Below are positions 14,077 through 19,976 of a stretch of 64,000 nucleotides of DNA, in pieces (positions within the stretch are counted from its first letter, which is position 1; each line of letters opens with the position of its first letter). The DNA is from Synechococcus sp. (GTDB lineage Bacteria; Cyanobacteriota; Cyanobacteriia; Thermostichales; PCC-7336), in NCBI GenBank assembly GCA_051439605.1, contig JBFRWN010000124.1:136366-200365 (forward strand), read 5' to 3'. A model generated the notes under the pieces. That model did no database searches, had not been told where the DNA came from, and saw only the letters and a list, made by a program, of their open reading frames with translations. The position numbers were made by a program, and so were the translations under genes.

Positions 14077-14522
14077 TGTCGGAATTCTCCACCACCATCA
14101 CCGCGCTCCCGCAGGAAGAGGCAAACGAGGGAAGGCCGACTGAAGCGGTCTGGCTAGATTGGCACGAACGCCGCAAAGCCCGACAGCGGGTCACGAGCGA
14201 TGCTGGGACAGAGCTGTTTTTGGCTCTACCCCGAGGTACCGTTTTGGCGGACGGTCAGTGTCTGTATCGGGAGGCTGACAGACAGATTATTGTCAAAGCG
14301 AGATCGCAGCCTCTACTCAAAATTCATCCCCAATCCCCTGTGGAGAGCTGTCGCATCGCACACCATTTGGGCAATTGGCACCGTCCGATTCAAATCGATC
14401 CGGATGGAGTCATCTGGGTGGAATGCGATCGACCCATTGCAGACTGGCTGCAGCGGACAGGGATTTCATTTGAAACATTAGAGTCCCCCTTCCATCCCAA
14501 CTCCATTGCCCATCAGCATTAG
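14076..14522 (+). CDS. ureE: Urease accessory nickel chaperone UreE
   Basis: LDWHERRKARQRV, LPRGTVLADG, AHHLGNWHRP, short C-terminal His tail. Confidence 0.88.
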   Translation: MSEFSTTITALPQEEANEGRPTEAVWLDWHERRKARQRVTSDAGTELFLALPRGTVLADGQCLYREADRQIIVKARSQPLLKIHPQSPVESCRIAHHLGNWHRPIQIDPDGVIWVECDRPIADWLQRTGISFETLESPFHPNSIAHQH

Positions 14523-14873
14523 TCCTAAATTGCATGAGATAGTCTGACAACGGACGTCAACCCAAGAATAAATGGCGGCGAGGGGCATCAATTATGAGAA
14601 AATTCTGCCGAACGTCTGAAAGGCTCTCAGTTTTGTCACAGTCTGCATGATGCCTGCATCAGGCTCAAGAAATGGTCCCGACCTTAGAGAAGCTAATATG
14701 GCTGTTGAAACCTCGCTACTTATGGCTCAAGCAGTCCTTGCCGGGACTGGCGTTTGAGGGGCCTAGCCTTTAGTATGTAGCTTAATATAGTTAAGCTTTG
14801 GCACAGACGCCCGAACTTCAGACAGAGAGTTGCGCTCAATGTGTGAGCATAGGGGGAGCAAATTGGTGAGCGT

Positions 14874-14901
14874 TTTACATTTCTTTACCGCGTTTTCACT
14901 T
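14874..14901 (+). promoter_or_regulatory. HLR1 (RpaB-box)-like direct repeat upstream of the phycobilisome linker gene
   Basis: TTTACATT-tc-TTTACCGC-gt-TTTCACTT with 10-bp period; the first half-site matches (G/T)TTACA(T/A)(T/A). Confidence 0.35.
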
Positions 14902-15030
14902 TAGCGATGGGATTGCGTAGAGGTTTGTTTGGTTGTTGCTGAATTTGTTCTTGCCATTAAAAAGCTGTTATCCATGTCGGCTACATAATTCACATCGTTT
15001 TTACATTGTTGTTACTAGGAGTAGCACCGA

Positions 15031-16350
15031 ATGAACTTTGGATCGACGTCACGGTTGGGACTCAGCCTGTACGAGACTTCCGACCCCTTGGAGCGATGGC
15101 CGGGTCAATCGAACGCTGATACTGAGGTCGTTATTCGGGCCATCTACCGCCAAGTGCTGGGCAACGTCCACATTATGGACAGCGAGCGACCGATCGCCCT
15201 CGAGTCTCGGCTCAGGAACGGAGAGTTGAGCGTCAGCGAATTTGTGCGCGCATTGGGCAAGTCTGCGCTATATGTAAAACGATTCTGTGATTGCCCCCGC
15301 TTCCGCCAGATCGAGCTGGGATACAAGCATTTCCTGGGTAGAGCCCCCAACAGCTATGCCGAAATGTTGGCTGGTACTGCAATCATGGATCGAGGCGGCT
15401 TCGATGCCTTGGTTGACTTTTTCGTAGACAGTGATGAATTTAAGTCGACGTTCGGTAGCGATACGGTTCCTTACATCCGGGGCTATAAATCAGATGCTCT
15501 GAGTTCTAATGCAGGGTTCTCCTATATGTTCGAACTCCTTGGCGGACCAGCCAGTAGCGATGCTGGGAAGGCTTCTGTTCTGAACGCATCCATCACACAA
15601 GAGAAGCCAAAGACGATCGCACCTGTTTACAAAAAGCCCGTTATTCTTCCTTATCAACCCCCAACTAAATTTACAATCCCAACTGCAGCTCCTGCTGCTA
15701 CTCCTGCTGCTCCAACGTTTGCATCCACTCCCGCCGCCGTTCCCGGAAAAGTCCCGAGCGCCCCAGGTGGAGCACAAGCACCACTATTGGGCGAGGCTGC
15801 TACCAGTGGTGGATTTTTCGGAAAAATCCTCAGCTTTGTGGAAAAACTTACAGGTGGCGGAGAGGCCCCTGCTGCAGCTGAAGCCGGACAAGTGGCAGCC
15901 AGCGCGGCCCCAGAGCAGCCAAAAAAGGCATTTTTCTTAGAGCCCGATGAGGCAATTTCCTTGGGGAACGTGGAGTACATGCGCACTCCAAGAACCGTTC
16001 GTCGAAGCTTCCCCAACGTTGCCGAGCCCGACAAGCCACTGGAATTTGAAGCTGTCGTTGATGCAACTAAGAAAGTTATCACTCCCGAGGCTGAGAAGCC
16101 GACAGGAATTCCTTCTGCGCTTGCGCCGAAGAAAGAAGAAGTTAAAATTCCAGTTGTTATCGCGCCTTTCGCTCCTGGTGTGAAAGTATCGGAGTCATTG
16201 AAGGAGTTTGGTACGACTGCTTCAAGAGCGGGGAAATCCGGTCCTTATGTTTCGATGTCGATGTCTCCTGAGGTATCCGTTCGTCGGAATAAGGACAGCA
16301 GCCTCGATGCATTTCGCAAGATGGCAACTGCAATTCGGAAAGGTGAATAG
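15031..16350 (+). CDS. Phycobilisome linker: CpeC-like PBS_linker_poly domain fused to a Pro/Ala tether and an ApcG/ApcI-like C-terminal module
   Basis: VIRAIYRQVLGN..SER..LESRLRNGELSVSEFVRALGKS..IELGYKHFLGRAP..FGSDTVPYIRGY; no CpcD-like C-terminal domain; ends SSLDAFRKMATAIRKGE; AGGAG SD upstream. Confidence 0.9.
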   Translation: MNFGSTSRLGLSLYETSDPLERWPGQSNADTEVVIRAIYRQVLGNVHIMDSERPIALESRLRNGELSVSEFVRALGKSALYVKRFCDCPRFRQIELGYKHFLGRAPNSYAEMLAGTAIMDRGGFDALVDFFVDSDEFKSTFGSDTVPYIRGYKSDALSSNAGFSYMFELLGGPASSDAGKASVLNASITQEKPKTIAPVYKKPVILPYQPPTKFTIPTAAPAATPAAPTFASTPAAVPGKVPSAPGGAQAPLLGEAATSGGFFGKILSFVEKLTGGGEAPAAAEAGQVAASAAPEQPKKAFFLEPDEAISLGNVEYMRTPRTVRRSFPNVAEPDKPLEFEAVVDATKKVITPEAEKPTGIPSALAPKKEEVKIPVVIAPFAPGVKVSESLKEFGTTASRAGKSGPYVSMSMSPEVSVRRNKDSSLDAFRKMATAIRKGE

Positions 16351-16546
16351 TCTGGCTAGGTTGAGCAGGGCTCTGAATTGCTGTAAGTGTTCCCCCTCGT
16401 TTCCGCACTATACGGGAACCTAAAACGAACCTACAAATGACTCTGTCGATCGCCGGTAGAGTCATTTGTGTGGCGACCGTCAAGTTACCTTGCGATTTAG
16501 CAAGCCTCGATCGCCGATGTTGATTTGAGAAATGACCGGACTCGAA

Positions 16547-19243
16547 TTAAGACTTCGAGTCCTTTTGGGGAAAACGATTGAGTACAAAAGCGATCGCCTC
16601 TTCCCGGGTTTGGAGCTTCCCATCGAGATTGGCATCTCGGATCGCTTGCAGAATATTTCTGAAGCCAGGACCGGGGCGATATCCCAACTGTTTGAGATCG
16701 TGTCCGTTGATGGGGGCTTTTTGTTGCCGCCAGCCAGACAAGTATTGCCACAGCTGCCTGCGCAGCCAAGCTGGCATTGAGGCTGCCAAGAGAATGACAT
16801 CCGCTACAGAGAGGCGATCGCAGAGTCGAGCTACTGCGCTGGGGGGGGATCCAGCTGAGAGTTCAGATAGGAACGTATCCCGACACTCTACAAAGTGCTT
16901 CAGACGCTGTAGCCCCTCCTGAGTCCAATCGAGGTACGTTGCTGCTTCCGCGGCCCGATCGCATTGCAATAGTAAGGACTCTAGTCTGAGCTGCCAGATG
17001 TGCCGCTGGTTGACTTCCCGAAAACGACGGGCAAAGTAATACGCCCAGGCTCCCACCCGCCGCAACCTAGGTAAGGACGTTGGGGTGAGGCGAAGATCGG
17101 GGTGCAGATAATGGAACGCTTCGAGGCGATCGAGCATTTGCAAGCCCTGCCGCCAGTTTTGGGTCTCGAGCAAGTAATACAGCTCTTGCTTAAGGCGAGG
17201 CCCTTGTTCCAAGGTCACCCCAGGTAACTGTTTTCCACGCACCAGTCGGCTAGCAGCCAAGGCATATTCGCGGGTGCGATCGTCCAGTTCGAAACCGAGA
17301 CGCACGGCAAAACGTACTGCCCGGATGGTGCGGGTGGGATCTTCGACGAAGCTATTGGGATGTAAAACCCGCAGCAGCTTTCGGTCTAAATCCTCCAGAC
17401 CACCAAAGAAATCCAGAATTTCCCCCGCCTGCGGGCCGTTGAGCCGGAGGGCAAGAGCATTGATAGAAAAATCTCGTCGATAGAGATCCTGTTGGATTGA
17501 ACTGGCAGATACCTCCGGGGCGGCTGCAGGATACGGGTAAAACTCGGTGCGGGCGGTGGCGATGTCGATCCAAAGGCCGTCCGGCCAAGTGAGGGCGGCC
17601 GTTTGAAATTTGCCGTGAATTTCCAGTTTGGTCTCGGGGTACTCCTCCTGCAACACTCGGGCCAGCTTCACCCCCCATCCCTCCGGTTCTTCATCGCTCA
17701 TACTAATGGGGTGACGTCCATCTACCACTAAATCGAGGTCGTCCGTGGGGCGATCGAGCAACATATCCCTGACTGTGCCCCCCACTACGTACAGTTGCAG
17801 GTTCATGCGATCCGCTGCGTCTGCAGCTTTATTCAAAATGTCCCAGTAGCGATCGGGAAGCATCTGCTGCAGCTTGACCTGCAGGCGATCGCGCACCTGT
17901 ACCGACGGTTGTTCGGTAGGATGCAAGTCATGCAGTTGCCGCAGTACGTCCGTTCGGGTGACGATGCCCACCAACTCGCCGCGATCGATGACAGGCAATC
18001 GGCCAATATCCCGCTTCAACATCAAATTCTGAATCTCTGCCAAAGAGGTTTGCGGTTGAATGAAGTAAACGGGATGGGTCATGTATCCCTTCACCGGAGC
18101 GTGACCGAAGCCGTGGTGCAAAGCTAGGTCCAAATCTCGACGGGAAACGACCCCCACCAACTCGCCACTTTCGTTGACCACCGATAGTCCAGAGTGGCCG
18201 TACCGCAGCAGCACCCGCTGGGCTTCGTTGATGGTGATGTCCGGCCGAATGGTGCGCACGGGGGAGGACATCAACTCCGATGCAGTGACCGGGTGAGGAA
18301 TCCGATCACGCAAGCGGTTGCGAATGTCTGCGGCCAGTGTTTCTAGTCCCTCCAGATCGCTGACATGAAGGTCCTCAGCTTTCAGGGAGGCTGATGCGGC
18401 TCGAGGATGACCGCCGCCGCTGTAGGGTTGCATCACTGTTTGCAGTTGAGCAAAGTCATGCATCGATCGCCCGATGATGCTGATGCGCTTGCCTTGGTGG
18501 GCTATCACCACCAGGATATCTAGGTCCGTCAGCTCCATTAGCCGCTCTACAATGCCCGAGAGTCCCCGCAAATAGACATCGCTTTGTACTGCCCACACCG
18601 CCAGTCGATAACCAGAGACCATCTCGCTAATTTGGCTAATGGTGTCCAGCCCTTGGGCTAGTAGCTCTTGCAGATCTGGGGTGAGACCGCGATCGATATA
18701 GGTCGATAGCACATCAAGATTCACCCCCCGCTCCATCAACCAGGCCAGAGCAGCTGCGTCCCGAGGAGAGCTATTGCCGAAGGTAAGAGAGCCTGTATCG
18801 ACGTGAATCCCTAATGCTAGTGCCGTGACCTCAAAAGGACTTAGCTCGATGTCTGTTTGTCGCAATCGTTCTACCATCAATGTGGAAGTGGCCCCTACTG
18901 GCTCTACACACCAAACCTTGGGTTGGTAATCTGGCTGCTTGGGGTTGGGGTGGTGGTCGAAAACATGCACTTCCACGTCTTCGCGGTAGACCCAAGACTC
19001 AGCTTTTCCCAATCTTTGAGGGGATTGTACGTCCACTAACACAATGCGATGGAGCGATCTCTCGTCCACCGATCGTATTTCGATGAGGGGATATTCGTCT
19101 CGGTGCAGAGCCAAAAATTCTTTCACCGGCTGGTGTGCTCCGCCTGTGAGGACAATTTTGGCCCCAGGGTACAAGTGCGCTGCCCCCACCGCTGCACCGA
19201 GGGCGTCAAAATCAGCAGTTTCGTGGCAAAGAATGACATCCAT
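16547..19243 (-). CDS. tRNA nucleotidyltransferase (A-adding type) with DHH, DHHA1 and CBS domains
   Basis: CHETADFDALGA, DHH, GGGHPRAASA, CBS pair, VGGTVRD..DLDLVV, DLYRRDFSINA, EDPTR; true start ATG 19243 (MDVILCHE). Confidence 0.93.
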   Translation of the reverse strand: MDVILCHETADFDALGAAVGAAHLYPGAKIVLTGGAHQPVKEFLALHRDEYPLIEIRSVDERSLHRIVLVDVQSPQRLGKAESWVYREDVEVHVFDHHPNPKQPDYQPKVWCVEPVGATSTLMVERLRQTDIELSPFEVTALALGIHVDTGSLTFGNSSPRDAAALAWLMERGVNLDVLSTYIDRGLTPDLQELLAQGLDTISQISEMVSGYRLAVWAVQSDVYLRGLSGIVERLMELTDLDILVVIAHQGKRISIIGRSMHDFAQLQTVMQPYSGGGHPRAASASLKAEDLHVSDLEGLETLAADIRNRLRDRIPHPVTASELMSSPVRTIRPDITINEAQRVLLRYGHSGLSVVNESGELVGVVSRRDLDLALHHGFGHAPVKGYMTHPVYFIQPQTSLAEIQNLMLKRDIGRLPVIDRGELVGIVTRTDVLRQLHDLHPTEQPSVQVRDRLQVKLQQMLPDRYWDILNKAADAADRMNLQLYVVGGTVRDMLLDRPTDDLDLVVDGRHPISMSDEEPEGWGVKLARVLQEEYPETKLEIHGKFQTAALTWPDGLWIDIATARTEFYPYPAAAPEVSASSIQQDLYRRDFSINALALRLNGPQAGEILDFFGGLEDLDRKLLRVLHPNSFVEDPTRTIRAVRFAVRLGFELDDRTREYALAASRLVRGKQLPGVTLEQGPRLKQELYYLLETQNWRQGLQMLDRLEAFHYLHPDLRLTPTSLPRLRRVGAWAYYFARRFREVNQRHIWQLRLESLLLQCDRAAEAATYLDWTQEGLQRLKHFVECRDTFLSELSAGSPPSAVARLCDRLSVADVILLAASMPAWLRRQLWQYLSGWRQQKAPINGHDLKQLGYRPGPGFRNILQAIRDANLDGKLQTREEAIAFVLNRFPQKDSKS

Positions 19244-19460
19244 AAACAGGCGCGGACTGGCGAGAAGGATAGTGGAATAGCTCGTGAGGCTATCTTGATT
19301 CTTGCATCTGCGGTCATGCAGAGTTGGAGATTGGTGGGGGGAGAATGAGCGATCGTCAACAACGGTCCTGCATACCCTAGGAAAAAGCCCTGCCGCAGTG
19401 GGCAAGGCGCTGTTTAGCGTGGGAAGTGAAAGACTCAATGGGAACGGGCTAGTGCTTGAG

Positions 19461-19976
19461 TTAATAGGCTCCGGACTCGCTGCTGGTGCCCGAGTCATTG
19501 AGAGTTTGGAGGAACTTGGGACGGAAGTTTTTGTTGTAGACACCAGACTCGCTACTGGCGGACGCTTCGTTGACTTTTTGTAGGAACTCGGGTCGGAAGT
19601 TTTTGTTGTAGACACCAGACTCACTACTGGTGGACGCTTCGTTGACTTTTTGTAGGAACTCGGGTCGGAAGTTTTTGTTGTAGACACCAGACTCGCTGCT
19701 GCTGCCTGCGTCATTAAGCGTTTGCAGGAACTTGGGGCGAGAGTTTTTGTTGTAGACGCCAGACTCGCTGCTAGAGGAGGCGCTGTTTACTTTTTGGAGA
19801 AACTCGGGCCGGAAGTTTTTGCGGGAAGCGCCAGAATTTTTGCTGGTGCCTTGAGATTCGAGGCGGTCGAGGGTTTCGAGAATGGAAGCGTTAGAAGGAG
19901 CGGGGGCTGCAGCGGCAACTACGGCAACAGCTGCGATCGCGAAGGTGGCGGAAGACAGAGTTTTGAAAGCGTTCAT
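19461..19976 (-). CDS. Secreted tandem-repeat protein (signal peptide + 5 x 24-aa repeats), function unknown
   Basis: GGAG SD before ATG; Ala/Val-rich signal peptide ending PSNA; five in-frame NKNFRP(E/K)FLQ..N....SSESG(V/A)Y repeats running to the stop. Confidence 0.85.
   Translation of the reverse strand: MNAFKTLSSATFAIAAVAVVAAAAPAPSNASILETLDRLESQGTSKNSGASRKNFRPEFLQKVNSASSSSESGVYNKNSRPKFLQTLNDAGSSSESGVYNKNFRPEFLQKVNEASTSSESGVYNKNFRPEFLQKVNEASASSESGVYNKNFRPKFLQTLNDSGTSSESGAY
19464..19823 (-). repeat. Coding tandem repeat, 72-bp unit x5
   Basis: GGAAGTTTTTGTTGTAGACACCAGACTC-like blocks recur every 72 bp on the + strand. Confidence 0.95.

Follow-up and report, generated by a model that had tools for sequence, protein, structure and literature searches.

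A solitary gene for a hybrid phycobilisome linker

This report concerns one gene in a 64,000-nucleotide stretch of DNA from a Synechococcus sp. assembly (the window; contig JBFRWN010000124.1, C124 below), the product of which joins two kinds of phycobilisome linker in a single chain: a rod-linker part resembling CpeC and, behind it, a part that aligns with the whole of the small protein ApcI (Sll1911). The window from 15031 to 16350 (+) is one open reading frame (ORF) with its ATG at 15031, its stop at 16348-16350 and 439 amino acids (aa); the open frame as such counts 441, with just two further sense codons in frame ahead of that ATG. Upstream lies ureE (identified by Pfam), which ends at 14522 and leaves a spacer of 508 bp, and the downstream neighbour is on the opposite strand and encodes a DHH-CBS-poly(A) polymerase protein. 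The same locus, in which a phasin-like gene, a 123-aa ORF and ureE are followed by the fusion gene, is present in the window's own genome (G000) and in two relatives (G001 and G003). The cpe cluster of the genome is on another contig, C141. A preliminary description, made from the letters of this DNA, had the gene standing alone behind an upstream region of about 500 bp and outside any cpe/cpc operon, and so it does; the motifs recognized at that stage (GGFFGKILSFVEKL, KKAFFLEPDEAISLGNVEYMRTPRTVRRSFP, RRNKDSSLDAFRKMATAIRK and FRKM at 16312-16323) all match in position. In the NCBI annotation, the copies in metagenome-assembled genomes (MAGs) are named only 'phycobilisome rod-core linker polypeptide'.

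The C-terminal half is a complete ApcI

Residues 255-439 (the module) correspond to Sll1911 of Synechocystis sp. PCC 6803 over practically its entire length. In BLASTP the module aligns with residues 6-128 of the 128 in this protein (P0328, which is sll1911 by its NCBI/UniRef name) at E 2e-16, and hhalign, given a profile of the fused modules, matches residues 2-128 (99.4 %, E 1.9e-21). P0328 belongs to the same 90 % cluster as P0044, one of the 236 matches (E <= 0.001) that aa 255-439 gave when 1.84 billion representative proteins were scanned exhaustively with HMMER. These relatives are mostly small, with a length of 89-195 aa in 145 of the 150 listed from the total of 236. One long match, P0105 (902 aa), was rejected as a TPR-like repeat protein that matches via a DPENAxNLGNYA repeat. 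A word-index homology search with the C-terminal part gave 2 matches.

In an alignment of 44 sequences, 43 of them stand-alone ApcI proteins (A1), the module keeps the three regions of the family, MxGFIxGLFG, FFLxxDxAxxLGNxEYMRT and RRxxDSSxDxFRxMA, with invariant L, G, D, F, R and M. Within the middle region L and G are invariant and D, A, Y, M, R and F nearly so; the invariant columns of the terminal helix are D, F, R and M. An AlphaFold2 (AF2) model of the module built on A1 predicts a helix in the N-terminal motif (aa 266-274; hydrophobic moment 1.58), three strands at aa 321-327, 337-343 and 348-352 (module residues 67-73, 83-89 and 94-98), with a predicted local distance difference test (pLDDT) of 82-90 over aa 315-344, and a terminal helix at aa 424-436 (module 170-182; pLDDT about 86), which aligns with the C-terminal helix of Sll1911. 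The second flexible spacer of the fusion, which precedes the C-terminal segment, is longer than in most stand-alone ApcI proteins. Two proteins of the ApcI family (P0003 and the one at L071) start MAGLFGLFG(R/K), and this fits the N-terminal peptide AGLFGLFGK that was measured for Sll1911, the mature N-terminus of which is partly acetylated according to the accessible part of the source (PMC13339759).

When a profile of the ApcI family was compared with the PDB, the best match was the C-terminal helix of ApcG (Sll1873, 7sc7) at E 0.027, with red-algal LPP2 at E 0.42; these values are weak, and they agree with the paralogy of the ApcI and ApcG helices given in the accessible text of a preprint on ApcI (10.1101/2024.09.09.612062). 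Two repeat proteins that rank between ApcG and LPP2 in this list are regarded as spurious. A PDB sequence search with aa 255-439 alone returned 0 matches at E <= 10, and Foldseek found no match for the module model in the PDB at E <= 0.001, the top rows having a template modelling score (TM) of 0.1. The BLASTP and hhalign results and the top place of the ApcG helix among the PDB profile matches bear out the earlier assignment of the C-terminal half to the ApcG/ApcI type, and place it in the Sll1911/ApcI family. Its designation as a core-binding module is right in that the helix is present, but too narrow: what has been appended is the whole of ApcI, including the part published as binding photosystem II (PSII), and not the helix alone. 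According to the same preprint, in its accessible part, ApcI's C-terminal domain attaches to the core at the site of ApcG, and PSII is pulled down by residues 1-73. A complex prediction for the first 105 residues of the module with the genome's CP47, made on A1 for the module and a 20-sequence alignment (A3) for CP47 and without controls, gave 0.00 and 0.00, the mark being 0.32, and weighs on neither side of the question of binding.

A CpeC-type linker domain in front of a flexible tether

Pfam finds the phycobilisome linker domain PF00427 in the 439-aa protein and nothing besides it at E <= 1; the CpcD domain (PF01383), which accompanies PF00427 in the ordinary rod linkers of the same genome (4/4), is absent. 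The PF00427 domain is ordered in a model of the full-length protein (pLDDT 76-93 over aa 31-140), and the CpeC-like similarity spans aa 1-188 (15031-15594), beginning with an N-terminal extension of the FGxxSRLGxS type that is common to the genome's own cpeC-like linker (MVFGPASRLGVSFFEETEP...). The Pro/Ala-rich tether in the place of the CpcD domain has a pLDDT below 50, as have all three spacers of the full-length model (aa 145-261, 274-304 and 347-409), and it is the least conserved region, with proportions of nonsynonymous (pN) and synonymous (pS) differences of 0.41 and 0.67 against G001. No transmembrane segment is present in the fusion protein, its maximal 19-residue hydropathy being 1.09 versus 2.53 in the genome's CpcL. 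The NCBIfam models for CpcG1-4 score the linker domain at 76-88 bits with cut-offs of 420-440, and it is therefore not of the CpcG type.

The genome (4.9 Mb in 143 contigs) has its rod cluster on C141, where cpcBA, two bilin-reductase genes, CpeS/CpeT/HEAT-repeat lyase genes, cpeBA, four rod linkers, cpcL (encoding a hydrophobic tail) and cpcG are found. The closest paralogue of the fusion's linker domain is one of these four linkers (C141:8654-9508, 284 aa; 55 % identity over 193 aligned positions), the gene for which heads the four-linker run, with cpeS and cpeT behind it, and adjoins cpeBA and pebAB. Four linkers followed by cpeS and cpeT is presumably the order of the classical cpeCDESTR operon. 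In a maximum-likelihood tree of 59 linker domains, the 18 domains of ten fusion proteins fall into a single clade (18/18; support 100/99) that is sister (100/98) to the 284-aa linker and its orthologue P0173. Both are nested among linkers that JGI names phycoerythrin-associated, and linkers named phycocyanin-associated (P0261 and P0267) lie outside, all these names being automatic annotations; the genome's own CpcG and CpcL also fall outside the clade. The Pfam match and the position beside the cpeC-like gene thus place the N-terminal PF00427 domain in the CpeC clade, as the preliminary description had it, and the missing CpcD domain and the Pro/Ala-rich tether were likewise read correctly there.

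We note another CpcD-less architecture in P0160, P0162, P0164-P0168, P0185 and P0202, in which one or two CpeC-like PF00427 domains precede a long predicted coiled-coil tail. These linkers end ...(A/G)xxxLNKWRxRxx, and for one copy the annotation gives a plasmid of Thalassoporum mexicanum PCC 7367 as the location.

Recurrence, selection and the number of linker domains

The fused forms comprise ten full-length clusters at 90 % identity, obtained from a search with the N-terminal 200 aa together with P0008 from the HMMER scan. The FFL...YMR region and the N-terminal motif are kept in 10/10, and all end in a ...FRKMA... helix; P0002 and P0006 look like fragments on short contigs. Two PF00427 stretches are present in eight of the clusters (P0154, P0155, P0156, P0157, P0158, P0004, P0159 and P0008) and one in the remaining two (P0001 and P0005). 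Most relatives are therefore two-domain proteins, which corrects the one-domain picture given in the preliminary description. An alignment of the window's protein with P0154 (664 aa) shows 433 identities in 439 aligned residues and a single indel of 225 aa, the second linker domain, which P0154 has in addition. Compared with this 99 %-identical form, the window's gene is thus a variant with one domain, produced by an in-frame deletion. The tree places the window's domain as sister to domain 1 of P0154 and the domain of P0005 as sister to domain 1 of P0004, and all second domains form a subclade of their own. Because of these positions we take the two-domain form to be ancestral and the second domain to have been lost twice.

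Logan contigs bridge the deletion junction in four runs, all of them marine sediment metagenomes and compared at contig level. X1, the likely source run, covers the whole stretch, X2 covers 15131-16500 with no differences, X3 covers 15527-16037 and X5 covers 15530-15782 (record 16); X2 and X3 are other samples of the study of X1, and X5 is from a second study. None of the contigs over the junction in these four runs has an insertion or a joint there. Two-domain relatives co-occur with the one-domain form, to judge from KEVAIRAAYK, a second-domain-like sequence encoded by a loose end in X5.

A survey of 41 genomes (the window's own and 40 relatives) found an ApcI-like match in 38, and in three (G000, G001 and G003) it lies in a long frame of 433-676 aa. 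These three carriers are among the four genomes of the window's genus in the survey. The fourth (G002) has a 152-aa stand-alone ApcI-like gene, which is the closest free relative of the module (48 %), and its best match to the fusion's linker domain is its ordinary cpeC-like gene. A split gene in G002 was ruled out, as the ApcI-like gene stands beside cpcL-cpcG and the ureE locus has no linker gene. This apcI-like gene (L032:1498-1956, -) directly follows cpcL-cpcG and is convergent with them, so that apcI is physically linked to the rod gene region there. Pattern scans of genome contigs and metagenome contigs (15 + 21 related loci) gave a long frame in 2 of 36, counted as G003 and G001, the other 34 frames being of 99-215 aa. 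Within the searched set, then, the fusion is limited to one marine lineage and a more divergent metagenomic form, P0008. Its recurrence in relatives, for which the preliminary description proposed a survey, is borne out by the ten clusters and by three of the four genomes of the genus.

Both halves are under purifying selection. For the whole ORF, pN/pS is 0.21/0.74 against G001 and 0.20/0.72 against G003; against G001 the values are 0.15/0.71 for the linker domain, 0.25/0.82 for the N-terminal motif through the beta region (range 0.23-0.25 / 0.73-0.82) and 0.16/0.75 for the C-terminal segment, all of these ratios being rough because synonymous sites are saturated.

Other ApcI, ApcG and ApcE genes of the fusion-bearing genomes

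When the open frames of at least 50 aa in G000 were scanned for the helix motif near the C-terminus, only the fusion gene and a 143-aa ORF on C107 were found. The latter (L054:1580-2011; C107:41579-42010) is a likely ApcG, with a hydrophobic N-terminus, an Ala/Pro-rich middle and the C-terminus ...RRPGAALNPFKSMVRDM... / ...RRPGAALNPFKSMVRDMQK; its sole PDB sequence matches are ApcG chains, at weak E values of 0.39 and 0.9. Besides the fusion, G000, G001 and G003 each have a short ApcI-like gene of 72-90 aa. Both the N-terminal motif and the FFLSPDE..YMRT middle region are retained in it, and in all three species it stops at the same point, ahead of any FxxM helix (...EVSS(M/L)(S/E)HIH...). This short paralogue, which may be a PSII-binding piece without core binding, was not found in G002, G004 or G005 and occurs only in the three fusion-bearing genomes; G002, G004 and G005 have a single stand-alone ApcI-like gene each.

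No ApcI-type protein other than the fusion appears to have kept a core-binding helix in the genomes that carry it, and the fusion would therefore also perform the ordinary coupling role of ApcI and LcpA. The latter (A0913 of Synechococcus sp. PCC 7002) is reported, in the accessible part of PMC11789067, to glue the phycobilisome core to CP47 of PSII. The genome with the fusion also encodes cpcG and cpcL, and its ApcE has 712 aa with two PF00427 stretches (REP domains), a size that suggests a small core of two cylinders.

A proposed anchor for phycoerythrin at photosystem II

We lean, with modest assurance, towards the reading that the hybrid linker tethers phycoerythrin (PE) hexamers at the interface between PSII and the underside of the core. 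To arrive at such a protein, a duplicate of a cpeC-type linker in one marine cyanobacterial lineage would have lost its CpcD domain and been joined to a complete apcI via the Pro/Ala tether of about 70 residues. Its PF00427 domain would occupy the central cavity of a PE hexamer, the two such domains of the longer relatives would string two hexamers, and the C-terminus would, like those of CpcG and CpcL, exit the hexamer on the core-proximal face. PSII (CP47) would be held at the thylakoid surface by the N-terminal motif and beta region of ApcI, and the module as a whole would fasten the hexamer or hexamers to PSII and the core underside; at the distal face, further hexamers could be attached by the genome's other rod linkers via their CpcD domains. 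The outcome would be one or two extra PE hexamers, possibly the base of a longer rod, at the core/PSII interface, and a third way to anchor rod elements beside CpcG (core) and CpcL (photosystem I). The preliminary description had likewise suggested that one chain could hold a PE hexamer at one end and dock on the core or membrane at the other, bypassing CpcG and CpcL. Perhaps, in a further-reaching form that we offer tentatively, ApcI-tethered linkers constitute a third class of rod anchor which plants one or two PE hexamers or a whole PE rod at PSII on the underside of a two-cylinder core; green light would then have a short-cut into PSII past phycocyanin and most of the core, and the fusion would have taken over ApcI/LcpA coupling, leaving the helix-less paralogue with a new function.

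A number of points weigh against this proposal. Every binding step in it is inferred from homology, and PE is preferred over phycocyanin on the strength of phylogeny, of automatic names and of the gene neighbourhood of the sister linker. All 43 aligned stand-alone ApcI proteins have the N-terminal motif from residue 2 onwards; in the fusion it lies inside the chain, so that binding of PSII may be changed or abolished. The gene lies outside the cpe/cpc cluster and may not be co-regulated with phycoerythrin, and G002, of the same genus, has a separate ApcI-like gene only and no fusion. The loss of one linker domain on two independent occasions (P0001 and P0005) suggests that the number of hexamers is not tightly constrained. 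A PE hexamer is too bulky to lie under the core, and the geometry would depend on flexible tethers. Direct transfer from PE to allophycocyanin or to chlorophyll is also spectrally less favourable than the route via phycocyanin.

One alternative is a rod-core linker that works like CpcG, in which the N-terminal and middle regions of ApcI would be mere spacer and PSII would not be bound. CpcG likewise consists of a PF00427 domain and then an allophycocyanin-binding helix of the same motif type (PMC11789067, accessible part), the genome's CpcG shows ...AEYLEMAKS... near its C-terminus, and both the internal position of the N-terminal motif and the small core implied by an ApcE with two REP domains would suit such a role. 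However, the supposed spacer regions are kept in all ten clusters with the low pN given above, which argues that both are still functional, and the linker domain is not CpcG-type by the NCBIfam scores; we consider this alternative unlikely. Less likely again is a cross-linker or regulator of antenna packing, the linker domain of which would sit in a hexamer of an ordinary rod while the ApcI end bound PSII or the core, drawing rods to the membrane or into arrays. ApcI is reported to act in the light-dependent remodelling of the coupling between phycobilisome and PSII (10.1101/2024.09.09.612062, accessible part), which would fit this. The two flexible spacers, of about 50-70 residues each, could moreover span many nanometres. 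In an ordinary rod, however, each hexamer cavity is expected to hold its own PF00427 linker already, and the fusion would have to displace the resident linker of an occupied hexamer.

Another possibility is that the protein is a precursor, cleaved in the tether so that a rod linker lacking CpcD and a free ApcI would act apart. Conservation and order are at their lowest in the tether, and cleavage would roughly restore the free N-terminus of a stand-alone ApcI; yet neither a Met nor a conserved cleavage motif is found ahead of the N-terminal motif (TSGGFFGK, GKLGFFGR, SKLGVFGR, SGNLLNRIFGF), and an in-frame fusion kept in ten clusters over about 50 % divergence would be needless if the parts acted apart, so that this seems very improbable. 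Hardly credible is an assembly artefact or a decaying pseudogene, an idea that could arise because the window is from a MAG and a domain of its 99 %-identical relative is missing. The one-domain junction is in contigs of four runs from two studies and is no assembly chimera, the deletion preserves the frame, pN is much lower than pS, and a second species (G001/P0005) has the one-domain form. The tethering of PE hexamers at PSII and the core underside is the reading that we retain in what follows.

Upstream region, neighbouring genes and feature coordinates

An alignment of the upstream regions from G000, G001 and G003 shows two conserved blocks in the 508-bp spacer, one of which is listed in Table 1; the second is at 14958-15030. 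Conserved letters are, for example, GGACT(A/G)GCG...CCTTTA(C/G)TATGTA...GTTAAGCT. These blocks may be a promoter, a regulatory site or a long leader. Rfam gave no match at E <= 1 over 14400-16700, a sigma-70 scan found zero promoter-like sites on the + strand of the upstream spacer, and a promoter and terminator scan gave sites that were not above shuffled sequence (2 vs 1.8 and 3 vs 2.5). An RNA run (X13) contains 0.06 of the sampled words.

The downstream gene (16547-19714, -) encodes 1055 aa with DHH, DHHA1, two CBS and a poly(A) polymerase/tRNA nucleotidyltransferase domain, preceded by three tandem Ser/Thr/Lys-rich repeats of about 23 residues (SLVSTTKTSDPSSYKKSTKRPPV). The start of a 171-aa ORF at 19461-19976 (-) resembles a signal peptide, and the ORF contains SSSESGVYNKNFRPEFLQKVNEA about five times in tandem.

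Table 1. Features of the fusion gene and its surroundings (positions in the window unless a locus is named)
Feature	Position	Strand	Basis or remark
Whole ORF, CpeC-like linker domain fused to ApcI module	15031-16350	+	439 aa
Candidate promoter/regulatory region, conserved upstream block	14742-14806	+	Run of invariant columns, about 225-290 nt before ATG
GGAG, likely ribosome-binding site	15018-15021	+	10 nt 5' of ATG; invariant in three species
N-terminal extension, aa 1-25 (MNFGSTSRLGLSLYETSDP...)	15031-15105	+	pLDDT about 31-33 (full-length model)
PF00427 phycobilisome linker domain, aa 27-150	15109-15480	+	Pfam E 1.3e-40
Pro/Ala-rich tether, aa 189-258, in place of CpcD domain	15595-15804	+	21 % Pro, 21 % Ala
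Deletion junction, in frame, between FAS and TPAAVPGK	15727-15735	+	P0154 carries 225-aa second linker domain there
Counterpart of ApcI N-terminal motif (GGFFGKILSFVEKL, aa 260-273), amphipathic helix	15808-15849	+	Alignment A1
ApcI middle region, aa 298-352 (FFLEPDEAISLGNVEYMRT..., then three predicted beta strands)	15922-16086	+	A1 and model
Middle-region motif KKAFFLEPDEAISLGNVEYMRTPRTVRRSFP, aa 298-328	15922-16014	+	Position matched
Second flexible spacer, aa 353-405	16087-16245	+	pLDDT below 50 over aa 347-409
C-terminal segment, aa 406-439: subfamily motif YVSMSMSPEVS, then allophycocyanin-binding-type helix	16246-16347	+	FxxM at 16312-16323
Terminal helix motif RRNKDSSLDAFRKMATAIRK, aa 418-437	16282-16341	+	Position matched
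Short ApcI paralogue	L027:2343-2561 (G000 C43:14342-14560); L050:1493-1765; L051:1649-1921		

Relation to known linkers

A full-text literature search found no publication describing a fusion of PF00427 with ApcI or LcpA, so that the protein is not, as far as this search goes, an already named and characterized linker. The accessible part of a review (PMC13436157) mentions ApcG and CpcL and no such fusion protein; the accessible text of the ApcI preprint mentions no fused homologue, and its Supplementary Table S1, with 244 homologues, could list one. The fusion would thus be a domain architecture new in print, as far as searched, put together from two known kinds of phycobilisome linker. It is only of late that small linkers (ApcG, ApcI and LcpA) have been implicated in the fastening of the phycobilisome to PSII, and the redeployment of rod elements is so far known only for CpcL. 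A natural protein with a rod linker covalently coupled to a PSII/core linker would be evidence of recombination between these modules in nature. From it follows the prediction of a new antenna geometry, and it would supply a finished design with which phycobiliprotein hexamers could be tethered to PSII. The one- and two-domain variants and the helix-less ApcI paralogue provide a natural series for dissecting the functions of the parts.

Of the known systems, ApcI itself is the nearest to the C-terminal half, which aligns with the whole of Sll1911 and keeps its three regions. Sll1911 stands alone with 128 aa, whereas the module is at the C-terminus of a 439-aa linker, behind a part of 254 aa and with longer spacers, and the fusion has an extra conserved GKSGPYVSMSMSPEVS segment that it shares with P0007, the closest stand-alone relative. 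LcpA is alike by description only, as a protein that is disordered at the N-terminus and has three beta strands and, at its C-terminus, an FxxMA helix, the 'HIWA' motif of which is also found in CpcG; it differs in being a stand-alone protein of 121 aa (PMC11789067, accessible part). The predicted fold of the module (helix, three strands, terminal helix) fits the fold sketched for ApcI and LcpA in the accessible parts of these sources, and 'Sll1911' is not mentioned in those of the LcpA paper and its supplement.

With CpeC-type linkers (PF00427 + PF01383) the fusion shares the N-terminal extension, the PF00427 domain and its sister-clade placement, but it has no CpcD domain and is not in a cpe operon. 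CpcG and CpcL offer a parallel in organization, as they too carry PF00427 at the N-terminus, placed in the basal hexamer, and have behind it a C-terminal part that decides where the rod is anchored, which for CpcL is a transmembrane helix (PMC13436157, accessible part); in the fusion the linker domain is of another type, no transmembrane segment is present and the anchor would be a whole ApcI. Finally, the multi-domain linkers of Gloeobacter (Glr1262 and Glr2806) and Anthocerotibacter (CpcN and CpcJ), which are the top PDB sequence matches, chain PF00427 domains as do the two-domain relatives of the window's gene (P0154-P0159, P0004 and P0008). These linkers are without an ApcI module, however, and the window's gene has a single linker domain, joined to an ApcI by which a hexamer may be tethered at PSII.

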